This document shows positions 48,959 through 63,487 of a stretch of 64,000 nucleotides of DNA, piece after piece. Every line of letters starts with the position of its first letter. Within the stretch, counting starts at the first letter, position 1. This DNA is from Trichococcus sp. Lineage in GTDB: Bacteria; Bacillota; Bacilli; Lactobacillales; Aerococcaceae. The notes beneath the pieces were generated by a model. It was not told the origin of the DNA and made no database searches. It saw only the letters and a list, made by a program, of their open reading frames with translations. The position numbers and the translations under genes are program-made. The stretch covers positions 187 to 64,186 of the forward strand of contig NZ_JBAWAZ010000013.1 in the NCBI RefSeq assembly GCF_049589555.1, read 5' to 3'.

Positions 48959-49052
48959 TTCAATCGCATAAAGATGAAACGTTCACTTTTAGATGAAATA
49001 GAGTGTTATGATGATGGGATTGCTTCTGGCTCCCCTAGTCTAGCTCAAGGTT

Positions 49053-49090
49053 CTTCCGAAGATCGCATGATTTTCGGAAGGGCATTTTTT
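49053..49090 (+). terminator. Rho-independent terminator after rplQ
   Basis: CTTCCGAA (49053-49060) / TTCGGAAG (49073-49080) hairpin, then GGCATTTTTT. Confidence 0.7.
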
Positions 49091-55209: not shown

Positions 55210-55287
55210 CGGTATTGTTTGCCCCACGATGAGCCCCGGAAACTCAATTGGATCAAACAGACAGAGAAGAATATGGAGGAAACAAAC
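55210..55287 (+). ncRNA. Probable L13 ribosomal-protein leader (cis-regulatory 5' UTR of rplM)
   Basis: ~80-nt leader between a near-consensus promoter and the rplM GTG. Assigned by position, by analogy with the Firmicutes L13 leader. I did not verify the structure. Confidence 0.4.
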
Positions 55288-57658: not shown

Positions 57659-58072
57659 ATGGACTTGAGAGAGATAAGCAGGTTGCTATATCAGATCAAA
57701 CTCACAAATCAGGAAATCAATACGCTGTTCGAAAAAGAAACGGGCTTCAGTTTGACGCGGTATGAAATGCTGATGTTCCTGAAAGATAAGGGGACATGCT
57801 CCCAAAAGCAGATCCAGACAGAGCTGAAGATAGACAGCGCGGCAATTACGCGCCATCTGAAAATATTAGAACAAAAGGGCTATGTCATCCGGGAACGGAA
57901 TGTAGAGAACAACAGAGAGGTCTTTGTTCAATTATCAGAGCAGGCGATCCAAGATTTGGCTGCCTGCGGAAAAGAACATGAGCAGGGGAAATCTTCCCTA
58001 TCGCTGTCCTTAAGCGATGGGGAAGCAGAGCAATTATCCGATTTACTGAACAAACTATACTTGAAAAGATAA
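57659..58072 (+). CDS. MarR-family transcriptional regulator
   Basis: 137 aa winged-helix pattern (LTRYEMLMFLKDKGTCSQKQIQTELKIDSAAITRHLKILEQKGYV). Confidence 0.88.
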   Translation: MDLREISRLLYQIKLTNQEINTLFEKETGFSLTRYEMLMFLKDKGTCSQKQIQTELKIDSAAITRHLKILEQKGYVIRERNVENNREVFVQLSEQAIQDLAACGKEHEQGKSSLSLSLSDGEAEQLSDLLNKLYLKR

Positions 58073-58091
58073 AAAGAAAGAGGCTGCAAAC

Positions 58092-58730
58092 ATGACCACT
58101 AAACTTATCAACAACGATTTTTCGGATATCGCATTCGGAAGAAAATCGATCCGTCTCTATGATGAAAATTTTAAAATCAGTCAGGAAGAAATGCTGGAAA
58201 TGATCCAGGAAGCCACAACCACACCATCATCCGTAAACATGCAACCTTGGCGTTTTGTGGTTGTCGAGAGCGAGGAAGCAAAAGCCAAATTGAAACCGCT
58301 GATCCGTTTCAACACAAGACAAAATGACACTTCGTCAGCGATGGTGCTGATATTCGGCGATATGCAATGCTACGAGTATGGGGAAGAAATTTATAATGCA
58401 GCTGTCGAACAAGGGAAAATGTCAGCGGAGGTCAGAGACCAACAATTGGCTGCCATCATTCCTTACTACAAGAACTTTTCAAAAGAAAAAATGAATGATG
58501 TCGTAAAAATCGATTCCAGTTTGGCAGCGATGCAATTCATGCTTGTGGCCCGCGCCCATGGCTATGATACAAATCCCATCGGCGGCTTTGAAGCGGATCA
58601 GTTGGCGGAAGCAGTCGATTTGGACAAAGAAAGATATGTGCCGGTCATGATCCTGTCAATCGGCAAGGCAATGGAAGAAGGCTACGAATCCGTAAGATTT
58701 GCACCAGAAAAAATCACTAATTTTAAGTAG
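58092..58730 (+). CDS. Nitroreductase-family NAD(P)H:FMN oxidoreductase
   Basis: RKSIRLYD...PSSVNMQPWRF motifs typical of the nitroreductase fold. Confidence 0.88.
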   Translation: MTTKLINNDFSDIAFGRKSIRLYDENFKISQEEMLEMIQEATTTPSSVNMQPWRFVVVESEEAKAKLKPLIRFNTRQNDTSSAMVLIFGDMQCYEYGEEIYNAAVEQGKMSAEVRDQQLAAIIPYYKNFSKEKMNDVVKIDSSLAAMQFMLVARAHGYDTNPIGGFEADQLAEAVDLDKERYVPVMILSIGKAMEEGYESVRFAPEKITNFK

Positions 58731-58738
58731 GTGGAGAA

Positions 58739-59026
58739 ATGATAGTAATCAATGCAGAATTCTATATTATACCCGAGCAAAAACAAAAATTCTTAAATGA
58801 AATTTCAGAACTAATTAAGGAATCTAGGAAAGAAGAAGGCTGCCTATCTTATCAACTTTACCAAGCTATTACAGATGAAAATAGTTTTGTAATGGTTGAA
58901 AAATGGGAAAACCCACAAGCGATTGAGTTACATAATAAAATGTCTCACTTACAAAATTTCGCTGAGAAAGTTCCTAATTATAGTCGCAAGGCGCCTCAAA
59001 TTACGGTTAGTCTTGTAAAAGAGTAA
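58739..59026 (+). CDS. Antibiotic-biosynthesis-monooxygenase (ABM/YgiN-like) domain protein
   Basis: 95-aa ferredoxin-like fold pattern ...EEGCLSYQLYQ...FVMVEKWENPQAIELH. Confidence 0.8.
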   Translation: MIVINAEFYIIPEQKQKFLNEISELIKESRKEEGCLSYQLYQAITDENSFVMVEKWENPQAIELHNKMSHLQNFAEKVPNYSRKAPQITVSLVKE

Positions 59027-59548: not shown

Positions 59549-59591
59549 GAAAAAAAACGAGACTATCTCTTGGAAAAAGAGATAGTCCCGT
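59549..59591 (-). terminator. Rho-independent terminator of the rgg-apbE-FMN reductase operon
   Basis: GACTATCTCT-tggaaaa-AGAGATAGTC stem. The plus-strand A8 on the left becomes a T-run on the minus strand, ~50 nt after the stop at 59639. Confidence 0.85.
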
Positions 59592-59638
59592 CTTGTGCTG
59601 TTATGCGGAAAATATTTGTTAAGGCCTCTGTAACGAAT

Positions 59639-60835
59639 TTATGCTTTAACCGATGCACCTGTACCAGCATCCACATCATTGCTGTAGTTGTCTTTGACGG
59701 AGGCGCTGGAAACGGCATCGACATCGCCCTCGAGTTTTTGGCCGGTTTGGGCCAGATACCAGTCGATGATCGGTTTGAAGTCCAGGATGTATTCGTTGAC
59801 GCCGGCATAGTTGCCATCTTTATCATGTAGCGCTTGATAATTATGCACGACATATTTGTCCGGACCATGAGTCGGAACGTTGACGCGGAAGGCGTCCATT
59901 GTGCCGGAACGCAATTGTTGGAGTACCCATTCCACGCCTTTGTGGACTCTTTCCGGGTGACATTTGGAGAGCGGATTGCCGACTTGGCCGGGCACGCGCG
60001 CAGCGAGCATTTCTTCTGCCGGTTTCGTATGGTTATAGTAGAGAAATTGGTTGTTGCTGTCTGCATAAGTCAATTCCATCGGCATCGAAGCCAGGAAGTA
60101 ATTCAGCTGATCAACGGTCAACAAGCCGCGTTCGAGTTTGACGTAGGTATTGCCTTCCACAGCGCCCACAAGCTCAGCGGCTTGTTCCAGCCAGTCGTCG
60201 GCTTCCTTATCGACGCCTTCAATCGTTGTTGCAATTTTTCCGATAGCGTACAGGTCTTCCGGTTCGAGCACCGGTTTTTTCGGTCCTTCAACAGCAGAGA
60301 CCAACGTGATGAACTGGGTGAATTTTTCCAGACAGCTGCCCAGAAAATCGACGGTGCGTTTGTCTTTCAGATTTTCCTGTTCATCGAATGCTTCTTTGAC
60401 CTTGCCCAGCAAAAATTCATTGCCTGGAAGGACGATGGCATTGACGCCGGGTGCATCTAGAATTTGGCGCAGGTGCAGTTGGGCACGGGAAGAGCCTTGA
60501 TCATAGTAGGAAGCTCCCACGATCATGACCGGTTTGTTTTCCAATGGATGGATTTTGAAGGACAACCATTCCAGCACACTCTTTAAGCTTGCAGGGATCG
60601 TGTGGTTGTGTTCAGGCGTGGCGATGATGACGCCATCCGCCTGCAGGATTTTTTGGCTCAACTTTTGCACAGCAGCGCTGTTCGTTTGGTCATCACTCTG
60701 ATTGAACAAAGGGATGTCCTTGATTTCCAAAATCTCCAGGTCGAACAAGTGGCTGAATTGCTTTTTGATGTATTTCAACAAGATGCGGTTATATGATACT
60801 TCCGCGTTGGAACCTACAATACCGACTAATTTCAT
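59639..60835 (-). CDS. Fusion protein: NAD(P)H-dependent FMN reductase (flavodoxin-like) domain + DUF438/PAS-like module + C-terminal double flavinylation-type motif
   Basis: N-terminus [17 protein letters not shown]...[14 protein letters not shown] (FMN_red family). The C-terminal half has [18 protein letters not shown]...SKCHPE...[15 protein letters not shown], resembling DUF438/PAS_10 as I recall it. Tail is [28 protein letters not shown]. Confidence 0.8.
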
Positions 60836-60853: not shown

Positions 60854-61462
60854 CTAGTTACTTTCCCAAGAAAAGTTTTCAGCTGCTTTTACGTGTGCGG
60901 CGTGGGTGTGCGATAGTTGTTTCATGATGTTGATAAACATTAGGAAGTCCTCGAACAAGCCTTCCAGCTCTTGGACCTGATCCGGATTCTTCAGATTGTT
61001 GTCTGCGTCGAAAGCCTGCAAAGAATGGCTGAGCAGGAACTCAGAACTTGGCATGATGCGGGCTTTCAATTCCGGCGCATCCAAAATTTGACGCAAATGC
61101 GCTTGCGCACGTGAGGAACCCAGTACGCCATAGGAAGCCCCTGTGATCATGACAGGCTTGTCGACGAAGGGGTAGATGCCGTAGGACAACCAACTCAAGG
61201 CGCTCATCAGGGAAGCGGGGACTGCGTGATCGTATTCTGGTGTGCTGATGATGACGCCGTCAGCTACTTCGATCTTTTCCGCCAAGGCTTTCGCCTCAGC
61301 CGGGATCTGCATGTCTGCCGGTTTGTCGAAGATAGGCAGGTCCTTGATTTCGACGATTTCGATGTCTGCCTTATCCGAAAAATGCTTTTGGATGTATTGC
61401 AGCAGCATACGGTTAGTGGAGTGGTCCGAGTTTGTGCCGACGAGGCCGATTAATTTATTCAT
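60854..61462 (-). CDS. NAD(P)H-dependent FMN reductase family protein (flavodoxin-like)
   Basis: MNKLIGLVGTNSDHSTNR...STPEYDHAVPASLMSAL; paralog of the N-terminal domain of the downstream gene. ATG 61462 after GGAAGGAAG. Confidence 0.85.
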   Translation of the reverse strand: MNKLIGLVGTNSDHSTNRMLLQYIQKHFSDKADIEIVEIKDLPIFDKPADMQIPAEAKALAEKIEVADGVIISTPEYDHAVPASLMSALSWLSYGIYPFVDKPVMITGASYGVLGSSRAQAHLRQILDAPELKARIMPSSEFLLSHSLQAFDADNNLKNPDQVQELEGLFEDFLMFINIMKQLSHTHAAHVKAAENFSWESN

Positions 61463-61515
61463 GTGAATACTTCCTTCCAAATATTAGTTTTTTTATGATT
61501 CATTTAAACACGTGA

Positions 61516-62460
61516 TTAGGCGGGGTGTTTGCGTTGCAGCCGGTTTTCCAAGCCTTTTGAGCAGATGAGGCTGCCGTCTTTCATGATCAGGATTCCGTCG
61601 ATTGCTTCCGATCGGTCCAATGTGGCGAGGATCACGTCGGCAGGTTGGCCGAATAAGCGGGTCGTCCAGATTTCCCCATCGACAGAGTCATCGGCAACCA
61701 CGGTCAGGCTGATGACATCCGTTTCTGCCGGATAGCCGGTTTGTGGGTCCAGAATATGGTGATAGTGCTTGCCTTGGGCTTCCAGCTGCCTCTCATATAC
61801 ACCGGAGGTAACCGCTGATTGGTTCTGGATCTTCAATACCGCGCTAAAATGCTCGCGGGGGAGCAGTGGGTTTTGGATGCCGATGCGCCAATAGGGATCT
61901 TCATGATTCTGGGATGGTCCGAACACGACGACATTTCCGCCCAAATTGATGAGAGCGGAAGCTACGCCGGCTTCCTTGAAGTATGCCGTCAGTAGATCGG
62001 CGATATAGCCTTTTGCCACGGCCCCCAAGTCGATCGCCATGCCTTCTTGCTGAAGGAAAACGGTCTGATCCTTCTCGGACAAGAGGATTTTGTTGGAATC
62101 GGTGATTTCAAGAAGCCTCTGAATCTCTTCAGCATTCGGGACTTTTGCATCACCGAAACCGATCCGCCAAGTCTGCACCAACGGTCCAATCGCGATATTC
62201 AGATGACTGCCAGGAGCTAAGCTATGGTATTTCCCCACCTTGATCAAGTGAAATAAATCAGGATGGACGGCGAGAGGGGCTTTCCCTGCCAACTGATTGA
62301 TTTGCATCAGCTCCGATGTTGGATCATTGGCGCTGAAACGCTGTTCGTATGTTTTCAGGCGTTGGATCGCCTCCTCCAAAATAGCATCAGGGTGCGTGTG
62401 CGTCACAAGTAGATCGATGATCGTTCCCATCAGACGGACCGTTGCCTTCTTTTGTTCCAT
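61516..62460 (-). CDS. apbE: FAD:protein FMN transferase (ApbE/Ftp family), no signal peptide or lipobox
   Basis: MGTIIDL, AIDLGAVAKGY, LGGNV, TSGVYER, HHILDPQTGYP motifs. Start at ATG 62460 (MEQKKATVRLMGT); the N-terminus is hydrophilic. Confidence 0.88.
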   Translation of the reverse strand: MEQKKATVRLMGTIIDLLVTHTHPDAILEEAIQRLKTYEQRFSANDPTSELMQINQLAGKAPLAVHPDLFHLIKVGKYHSLAPGSHLNIAIGPLVQTWRIGFGDAKVPNAEEIQRLLEITDSNKILLSEKDQTVFLQQEGMAIDLGAVAKGYIADLLTAYFKEAGVASALINLGGNVVVFGPSQNHEDPYWRIGIQNPLLPREHFSAVLKIQNQSAVTSGVYERQLEAQGKHYHHILDPQTGYPAETDVISLTVVADDSVDGEIWTTRLFGQPADVILATLDRSEAIDGILIMKDGSLICSKGLENRLQRKHPA

Positions 62461-62488: not shown

Positions 62489-63367
62489 TCATTCTTTTGC
62501 GGGATTCCCTGAAAGGATCTCACTTTCTAACTGCGCCAATTCTTTCAGCGCAATCGTGTTTTTGTTGATTTTTGAATAGGCTCTGGCATCGTAGATCAAT
62601 TCCAGCACTTCTTGCTGCGGCTTCTCCTGGAGGATGGCATTTTTGGCCAACTGGATGGCTGCACGGGCAAGGTAGTAGGTCACATGATTGTCTGAACAAA
62701 TGGAAACAGCATAGGAAAGCAGTGCATTGCTCAGTTCAATCTCATTGATGAGGGAATAGAAGGTACCGCTTTGGAAAACAATATTCAGTACACGCCAGAC
62801 ATCCTCCATCGTCTTGATCGGATAAGCATAAATTTTTTCCAGGACCTTACTGAAATAAAACTCTGCCTTTTCCAGTTTTTTTTCACGGCTGTAGACCATG
62901 CCGATACCGGTATAAGCCAGCAGGCGATAGATTTCCACATCGTTCCCATCGTCAGCCAGTAAGATTTGATCGAAGGTGAACAATACATCCGTCACTGAAA
63001 CCTGCTGCGCAATCATGATGAAACCGTTCAAATAATGGAAGCGTAGGGCCAGGCTGTTTTCTTCGATTTCACTCACGGTAATGCTCTGCAGCAGGTCCGA
63101 GGCCTGGTCGTATTCACTTGTGATCAGAAAGAATTCTGCTTCGTTCATTTTTTCTGTCGCTTCTGTATACTTGACGCCTACTTTAGGGAACAGTTCTCCC
63201 AAGGGTAGATTTAGTCTGTTGCACAGTTTGATCAGGATCTTCAGGTTCGGGACTTGCCCGTTGTTCTCGAAGCGGCTCAAAGTAGCTTGGGTACAGATAC
63301 CCTCTGCCAGGTCCATCTGAGAGAGGTTCAACGCTTTGCGGGCTTCAATAAATCGTTCGATGTTCAT
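62489..63367 (-). CDS. rgg: Rgg/GadR/MutR-family transcriptional regulator (XRE HTH + TPR-like peptide-binding domain)
   Basis: MNIERFIEARKALNLSQMDLAEGICTQATLSRFENNGQVPNLKILIKLCNRLN HTH plus a ~220-aa helical C-domain. ATG 63367 after GGGAGGAAAAA; the track ORF is over-extended to 63613. Confidence 0.85.
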   Translation of the reverse strand: MNIERFIEARKALNLSQMDLAEGICTQATLSRFENNGQVPNLKILIKLCNRLNLPLGELFPKVGVKYTEATEKMNEAEFFLITSEYDQASDLLQSITVSEIEENSLALRFHYLNGFIMIAQQVSVTDVLFTFDQILLADDGNDVEIYRLLAYTGIGMVYSREKKLEKAEFYFSKVLEKIYAYPIKTMEDVWRVLNIVFQSGTFYSLINEIELSNALLSYAVSICSDNHVTYYLARAAIQLAKNAILQEKPQQEVLELIYDARAYSKINKNTIALKELAQLESEILSGNPAKE

Positions 63368-63458: not shown

Positions 63459-63487
63459 ATTATACGCTTACTGAATATAAGGGTCAA
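63459..63487 (-). promoter_or_regulatory. Consensus sigmaA-type promoter of rgg (minus strand)
   Basis: Minus-strand TTGACC (63487-63482), 17-nt spacer, TATAAT (63464-63459). Confidence 0.7.

Follow-up and report, generated by a model that had tools for sequence, protein, structure and literature searches.

The fusion gene and its C-terminal tail

The 64-kb stretch of Trichococcus DNA analysed in this study (hereafter, the window) encodes a fusion protein in which an NAD(P)H:flavin mononucleotide (FMN) reductase domain is followed by a PAS_10 module and a short C-terminal tail. On the reading that we consider most likely from the sequence, this tail carries two sites for the covalent attachment of FMN by a cytosolic flavin transferase, ApbE, that is predicted from the same operon. 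The organism was assigned to Trichococcus (96-99% identity), and the best match of the fusion protein was a protein of Trichococcus pasteurii (96% identity). The gene and the parts of its product are located in the window as follows.

59639..60835, minus strand: FMN_red-PAS_10-tail fusion gene, 398 amino acids plus stop codon, with a GGAGA ribosome-binding site (RBS) 8 nt upstream of the ATG
60290..60835, minus strand: FMN_red domain (flavodoxin-like NAD(P)H:FMN reductase), residues 1-182; Pfam PF03358, E=2e-38, match over residues 1-146
59744..60265, minus strand: PAS_10 module with its N-terminal cap, residues 191-364; Pfam PF13596, E=5.5e-27, match over residues 244-353
59642..59728, minus strand: disordered C-terminal tail, residues 370-398 (last 29 codons), recognized by translation, AlphaFold2 and conservation
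59699..59719, minus strand: motif 1, DAVSSAS, residues 373-379, with predicted FMN acceptor Ser379 (codon 59699..59701)
59651..59671, minus strand: motif 2, DAGTGAS, residues 389-395, with predicted FMN acceptor Ser395 (codon 59651..59653)

When the Protein Data Bank (PDB) was searched by sequence, the N-terminal domain matched 3svl (ChrR/YieF) at E=3e-24, and Foldseek aligned it with 3svl and with 3u7r (FerB) at a template-modelling (TM) score of 0.83. The PAS_10 module matched 2qkp, the C-terminal domain of S. mutans SMU_1151c, both by sequence (E=5.7e-22) and by Foldseek (TM 0.87). This middle domain had been labelled DUF438 in the initial annotation. However, DUF438 (PF04282) was detected neither in the whole protein at E<=0.01 nor in residues 146-243 at E<=1, and the label should be replaced by PAS_10. 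Within the module, Cys292-His293-Pro294 is invariant among close homologues. NCBIfam offered no specific model for the fusion protein, returning only sub-threshold matches of the SsuE/ArsH type. The flavodoxin-like fold starts right at the N-terminus with its first strand, so no signal peptide is predicted for the protein.

The fusion protein was also modelled with AlphaFold2, with 121 sequences as input (mean predicted local distance difference test score, pLDDT, 82). The PAS_10 region (residues 191-364) was folded with high confidence (pLDDT 89-97); residues 371-398 had pLDDT values of 27-33 and no secondary structure. Moreover, FMN_bind (PF04205), the domain that cradles the flavin in classical ApbE clients, gave no Pfam match in the fusion protein at E<=0.01. 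The earlier proposal that the motifs lie on an unstructured tail (pLDDT below 50 throughout residues 371-398) rather than within an FMN_bind domain was thus borne out.

The tail had been described as 29 residues holding two copies of a 12-residue unit, and the translation agreed exactly. The two units (residues 371-382 and 387-398) are identical at 8/12 positions of the protein and at 24/36 positions of the DNA, and five of their conserved codons differ synonymously. Given these synonymous differences, the duplication is old and has been kept by selection at the protein level; a recent duplication of DNA was ruled out as the origin of the units by the same five differences together with the 24/36 nucleotide identity.

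The canonical flavinylation motif is D-x-x-[S/T]-G-A-[S/T], in which the terminal Ser/Thr is the acceptor (PMC12052999). Motif 2 is a full match to this consensus, and its predicted acceptor Ser395 lies three residues from the C-terminus. Motif 1 deviates from it in having Ser at the Gly position. When the six reading frames of the window were scanned with the pattern D-[AG]-x-[ST]-[GS]-A-[ST], using stop-free stretches of at least 60 amino acids (50,366 residues), only two matches were found and both were in the tail. Two matches did not arise in any of 200,000 shuffles of the tail.

Conservation of the tail and its linkage to apbE

Conservation was assessed in an orthologue set of 80 loci from different species, among them members of Carnobacteriaceae, Enterococcus, Vagococcus, Gemella, Granulicatella, Oceanobacillus, Gracilibacillus, Lactiplantibacillus and Companilactobacillus; 78 of the orthologues were complete. 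When a loose motif (D-x-x-[STA]-[GSA]-A-[ST]) was applied, at least two motifs were found in all 78 (78/78). With the strict motif, 43 of the 78 had two motifs, 24 had three, four had four, five had one and two had none. A similar spread was seen in the 120 nearest homologues in the database (identity of 72% or more), where zero, one, two, three or four strict motifs occurred in 6, 29, 54, 29 or 2 proteins, respectively; the six scoring zero contained near-misses such as DAVASAS. The consensus among orthologues was [V/A]-D-A-[V/T]-S-G-A-S, in which D and A are set by the search pattern. Across 173 orthologous instances, position 5 was G in 77% and S in 23%, and the acceptor position was S in 80% and T in 20%. 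The motif positions are near-invariant, whereas the linkers between motifs vary in both sequence and length (10-34 residues from D to D). In most orthologues the first motif begins 6-12 residues past the last PAS helix, and in 76/77 the last motif is followed by 1-5 residues before the chain ends. In the alignment of homologues that the initial annotation had proposed, the orthologues had thus kept the tail as well as its acceptor Ser/Thr.

Chance resemblance was examined as well. The orthologue tails are biased in composition (A 22%, S 15%, D 10%). Even so, they contained 199 motifs, compared with 3.1 on average, and never more than 9, in 1000 composition-matched shuffles, an excess of about 64-fold. 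No motif was found in the folded bodies of the orthologues (27,821 residues) or among 79 tail-less FMN_red paralogues.

The fusion gene is the last of an apparent four-gene unit, the other features of which are listed below.

60854..61462, minus strand: tail-less FMN_red paralogue, 202 amino acids, identified by Pfam; ATG at 61462 preceded by the RBS GGAAGGAAG (start in the open reading frame list, TTG at 61480)
61516..62460, minus strand: ApbE-family flavin adenine dinucleotide (FAD):protein FMN transferase, 314 amino acids; Pfam PF02424, E=1e-75
62489..63367, minus strand: XRE-type helix-turn-helix (HTH) plus tetratricopeptide repeat (TPR) regulator (RRNPP-like), first gene of the unit; Pfam HTH_3 and TPR
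63459..63487, minus strand: promoter-like site TTGACC-17-TATAAT (11/12), a consensus match only, which precedes the regulator
59554..59594, minus strand: intrinsic-terminator-like hairpin, an 18-bp stem followed by a T-run, 45 nt past the fusion stop codon

The tail-less paralogue ends 18 nt upstream of the fusion gene. In 79/80 loci it is the gene that directly precedes the fusion, in most cases at a distance of 10-21 nt; it is presumed to be the partner subunit of a heterodimer. The apbE gene was found two genes upstream of the fusion in the same apparent operon, and not as its immediate neighbour, as had been stated earlier. Its product scores below the NCBIfam cut-off for the ApbE equivalog. 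A longer open reading frame, which reaches to 62523, runs into the end of the regulator gene, and the likely start is the Met at 62460. Orthologues of this ApbE begin 8-12 residues before a conserved MGT motif, with an in-frame stop just upstream in many loci. Neither a signal peptide nor a lipobox, nor room for one, was found in the operon ApbE and its orthologues, and on this basis the enzyme is predicted to be cytosolic, like its client. An apbE gene stands on the same strand next to the paralogue/fusion pair in 58/80 loci (upstream in 46, downstream in 12). In 19/80 loci a homologue of the regulator occupies the same position, upstream and in the same orientation. No FMN riboswitch or other RNA element was found in the operon.

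Two further observations concern the remainder of the window. Directly past the terminator lies a convergent cluster of a MarR regulator, a nitroreductase and an ABM monooxygenase (57659..59026, plus strand), a unit of the redox/quinone-stress type. Rfam matches elsewhere in the window were a ribosomal protein L13 leader and an L17 downstream element (55211..55263 and 49000..49079, plus strand), which are ordinary and unrelated to the operon.

With these data in hand, it could be argued that the tail is a remnant of an Ala/Ser/Asp-rich low-complexity linker that bears no flavin, its likeness to the motif being coincidental or reflecting some other modification of Ser/Thr. The biased composition of the tails would suit such a reading, as would the 22 of 80 loci where no ApbE was found nearby and the stand-alone PAS_10 genes of Lactobacillus (described below), which are not near apbE. 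Against it, shuffled tails yielded 3.1 motifs on average (maximum 9) versus the 199 observed; D, A and the acceptor S/T stay fixed while the linkers drift; ApbE is encoded in the same operon in most species; and homologues have been flavinylated experimentally at such sites (PMC11334425). The shuffles and the published biochemistry rule out a chance product of low complexity, and we regard the absence of flavin from these tails as very improbable.

Relation to published systems and to a wider family

Proteins of this kind have been described before. In a survey of GTDB for proteins that are linked to apbE and bear a flavinylation motif, Huang et al. (mSystems 2024) reported ApbE-associated FMN_red proteins with C-terminal flavinylation motifs in Firmicutes (PMC11334425). 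The FMN_red proteins of L. lactis and L. taiwanensis were flavinylated upon co-expression with their cognate ApbE, and replacement of the acceptor Ser/Thr by Ala abolished the modification. The window protein resembles the Lactococcus class in belonging to the same FMN_red clade, in its unstructured C-terminal extension (with 1-2 motifs in that class), in its co-localised apbE and in the acceptor, which is often Ser. It has the features by which that class was defined, namely a PF03358 FMN_red domain, two C-terminal motifs and an apbE two genes upstream. As stand-ins for the two published Lactococcus proteins we used P0311 (267 amino acids) and P0325 (302 amino acids), which consist of FMN_red plus an extension with no PAS_10; the identity of P0311 with WP_021723379.1 is not confirmed. 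Between the window FMN_red domain and P0311, which is from Lactococcus cremoris/lactis, the identity is 51% (E=1e-58). Unlike both stand-ins, the window protein has a PAS_10 module of about 190 residues between FMN_red and tail, and its last motif is three residues from the end, whereas the motif of P0311 is not at the extreme C-terminus. The tail had been called an unusual minimal client of a flavin transferase. It is not an unreported one, because its class was published in 2024. FMN_red with C-terminal flavinylation motifs and apbE is a class known since that year, to which the Trichococcus protein is added as an uncharacterised member.

A second published system is also related to this locus. 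In L. johnsonii, FRedA and FRedB are two tandem FMN_red paralogues that assemble into an obligate heterodimer (Valladares et al. 2015, PMC4500961; Hertzberger et al. 2014, cited there). This enzyme has two FMN sites, is NADH-specific and FMN-dependent, and oxidizes NADH with production of hydrogen peroxide (H2O2), properties known only for L. johnsonii. Their affinity for FMN is weak (dissociation constant, KD, ~2 µM; 0.58 FMN per dimer as purified). LjPAS, a 28-kDa PAS_10 protein whose gene is oxygen-regulated, slows the formation of active FRedA/B; in L. plantarum (Lp2732) and E. faecalis (EF1227), reductase and PAS module are joined in one fusion protein (PMC4500961). The published biochemistry of LjPAS was obtained with unflavinylated protein made in E. 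coli without ApbE, and covalent flavin, ApbE and a C-terminal tail are nowhere mentioned in that paper, which treats FMN as purely non-covalent (PMC4500961). The window likewise has two consecutive FMN_red paralogue genes, 18 nt apart, an arrangement found in 79/80 loci, together with a PAS_10 module that is fused as in Lp2732 and EF1227; in L. johnsonii, by contrast, the PAS protein is encoded by a separate gene. The likeness to FRedA/B drawn here is one of architecture and gene order.

Two other comparisons are informative. Clients with FMN_bind (NqrC, RnfG, PplA, and fumarate and urocanate reductases) share the acceptor motif and the transferase family with the window protein; their motif, however, is inside a folded flavin-cradling domain, and the window motifs are in a disordered tail. 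The Flavin-tag (Tong et al. 2021) established that ApbE needs no more than a terminal 7-residue motif for efficient flavinylation (PMC12052999), although it accepts Ser less well than Thr. The natural tail resembles two such tags in tandem, the last of them three residues from the C-terminus; unlike the Flavin-tag, an engineered label with no catalytic role, it is conserved and is carried by a flavin-using enzyme. A cytosolic ApbE with a cytosolic client also occurs in Klebsiella (PMC12052999). The apbE and FMN reductase genes of Bifidobacterium (PMC5449479) were considered as a parallel and rejected, since they are unrelated and not linked.

When 1.84 billion representatives were searched exhaustively without a profile, motif-bearing disordered segments were found on several architectures. 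One is FMN_red-PAS_10-tail, as in the window. Proteins with FMN_red and tail and no PAS_10 carried five, seven or eight motifs in P0161 (Lentilactobacillus hilgardii, 291 amino acids), P0227 (Secundilactobacillus, 299 amino acids) and P0175 (422 amino acids), respectively. These numbers far exceed both the published 1-2 and the two flavin pockets that a dimer offers; P0227 has its motifs in a tandem repeat of ~36 residues. Stand-alone PAS_10-tail proteins of the LjPAS type, from the genus Lactobacillus (81 proteins, among them P0366, P0370 of L. jensenii and P0342), had 2-3 motifs, with three in 61/81. P0121 (711 amino acids) combines FMN_red with two PAS_10 modules and has its motif clusters in inter-domain linkers, not at the C-terminus. 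P0134 (814 amino acids) joins FMN_red to FAD_binding_2 and a complete FMN_bind in a fumarate-reductase-like arrangement, and in P0124 (611 amino acids) two PAS_10 modules are fused to FMN_bind. In addition, an extra stand-alone PAS_10 gene with 1-2 tail motifs was observed beside the paralogue/fusion pair at three Atopostipes loci (L030:2099-2800, L053:3965-4633 and L055:3688-4326), of which L030 and L055 also have apbE. Beyond the two studies discussed above (PMC11334425 and PMC4500961), the additions made here, relative to the literature searched, are that the tail follows the PAS module, that stand-alone LjPAS-type proteins have 2-3 motifs, and that up to eight copies occur.

What the predicted tethered flavins may do

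Every check that could be run on the flavinylation proposed in the initial annotation was favourable, namely the conservation of the tail, the enrichment of the motifs, the linkage to ApbE and the flavinylated Lactococcus homologues. A canonical motif (motif 2) and an ApbE in the same compartment, encoded in the same operon, were both found, as is required of an ApbE substrate. We consider it very probable, judging from these comparisons, that the Trichococcus fusion protein is flavinylated.

The account that we favour is as follows. The cytosolic ApbE of the operon would use FAD and transfer FMN through a phosphoester bond to Ser379 and Ser395. The tail would then act as a natural "flavin tag", and each chain could hold as many as two covalent FMNs on a flexible leash. 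The fusion, which is FRedB-like, would pair with the tail-less paralogue in a heterodimeric NADH:flavin oxidoreductase similar in type to FRedA/FRedB, and the tethered FMNs would dock reversibly in two flavin sites of weak affinity at the dimer interface. Such an enzyme would carry its own captive cofactor or substrate rather than depend on free FMN. Reduced flavin would then pass its electrons to O2, yielding H2O2, or to another acceptor. Tethering would make sense because FRedA/B binds FMN so weakly (KD ~2 µM, 0.58 FMN per dimer). The docking step is favoured by the most frequent copy number, two (43/78 orthologues), which equals the number of flavin pockets. AlphaFold-multimer placed the Lactococcus sites near the conserved flavin pocket, which the tethered flavin was proposed to occupy (PMC11334425). 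Docking into the FMN_red pockets we hold to be an evenly balanced proposition, and the account as a whole, in which the ApbE-loaded FMNs of the tail are the captive cofactor or substrate of the heterodimer, to be reasonably probable.

Several observations weigh against this account. With a hidden Markov model built from the 58 operon ApbEs, no ApbE-like open reading frame was found within 6 kb in 22/80 loci. Between four and six of these 22 loci are short contigs, and the others include Lactiplantibacillus, Furfurilactobacillus, Fundicoccus and S. suis. Their tails are still conserved, with several motifs each at L017, L021, L024, L036, L048, L049, L052, L054, L056-L058, L062, L067, L071, L073, L076 and L078. 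Likewise, neither apbE nor FMN_red was found within 8 kb of the stand-alone PAS_10-tail genes of Lactobacillus (L081-L083). A Gly-to-Ala change in the motif of another client halves flavinylation (PMC12052999); because motif 1 has Ser in place of Gly, its occupancy may be partial. The three to eight motif copies of some relatives exceed the two pockets. Finally, a PAS_10 module of ~190 residues separates FMN_red from the tail, and the orientation of the domains is uncertain (predicted TM score, pTM, 0.52).

In an alternative account, the pockets hold non-covalent FMN that oxidises NADH and the tail serves as a swinging-arm relay or antenna, its ApbE-attached flavins being mobile carriers for a second step, or captive substrates, that take electrons to O2, to PAS_10 or to a partner protein. 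There is precedent in multidomain reductases, where the covalent FMN of FMN_bind sits between an NADH-oxidising flavin and a substrate-reducing FAD. The spread from one to four motifs in orthologues and to five, seven and eight in P0161, P0227 and P0175, together with linkers of 10-34 residues, would fit an antenna better than two fixed pockets. The position of the PAS module between FMN_red and tail, the motif clusters in the inter-domain linkers of P0121, the fusion of the same FMN_red clade to FAD_binding_2 and FMN_bind in P0134, and that of two PAS_10 modules to FMN_bind in P0124 point in the same direction. However, no downstream acceptor protein is encoded in the window operon, the most frequent copy number equals the number of pockets, and the published model puts the Lactococcus sites near the canonical pocket (PMC11334425). 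We regard a relay or antenna as a rather unlikely role for the tail.

The PAS module itself might instead be the destination of a tethered flavin, with the FMN of the first motif bound in or on PAS_10 as a redox/O2 sensor that gates the assembly or activity of the reductase. PAS domains that bind FAD or FMN do act as redox/O2 sensors. The motif segment usually comes right after PAS_10 where the module is present, with the first motif 6-12 residues past the last helix, and the stand-alone LjPAS-type proteins carry 2-3 motifs (three in 61/81). A His-Pro pair is conserved in PAS_10 (Cys-His-Pro among close homologues), and LjPAS, from an oxygen-regulated gene, slows formation of active FRedA/B (PMC4500961). 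On the other side, motif tails also occur on PAS-less FMN_red proteins, including the Lactococcus type proven to be flavinylated, and a PAS-bound flavin would account for one motif, not for two to four. To our knowledge, PAS_10 has no known flavin ligand, and the solved PAS_10 structures 2qkp and 3cax were deposited only as uncharacterized proteins. Taken together, these points make a PAS-bound sensor improbable.

A variant that keeps the docking of tethered flavins would regard the tail as mainly an appendage of PAS_10, the PAS_10-tail proteins, fused as in the window or free-standing like LjPAS of Lactobacillus, being "flavin carrier proteins" that offer several ApbE-loaded FMNs to the weak-affinity sites of FRedA/B. 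By analogy with acyl carrier protein, which presents a prosthetic arm, such a carrier would set the rate of NADH oxidation and of H2O2 production. We put this idea forward tentatively, as a less likely version of events. If it were true, the published "regulatory" effect of LjPAS, which was observed with unflavinylated protein, would have to be reinterpreted, and ApbE would have a cytosolic role unrelated to preventing the loss of flavin outside the cell.

The findings tie the flavinylation of FMN_red by ApbE, reported in 2024, to the H2O2-producing FRedA/B-LjPAS reductase of lactobacilli described in 2014-2015. This link was not found in the literature searched, nor was any paper connecting PAS_10 or FRedA/B with flavinylation. 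If the tails are indeed flavinylated, leashed flavin would be a feature of an enzyme widespread in Lactobacillales and Bacillales, studies of recombinant protein produced in the absence of ApbE would have overlooked the native state of the cofactor, and ApbE flavinylation would have a clearly cytosolic function.

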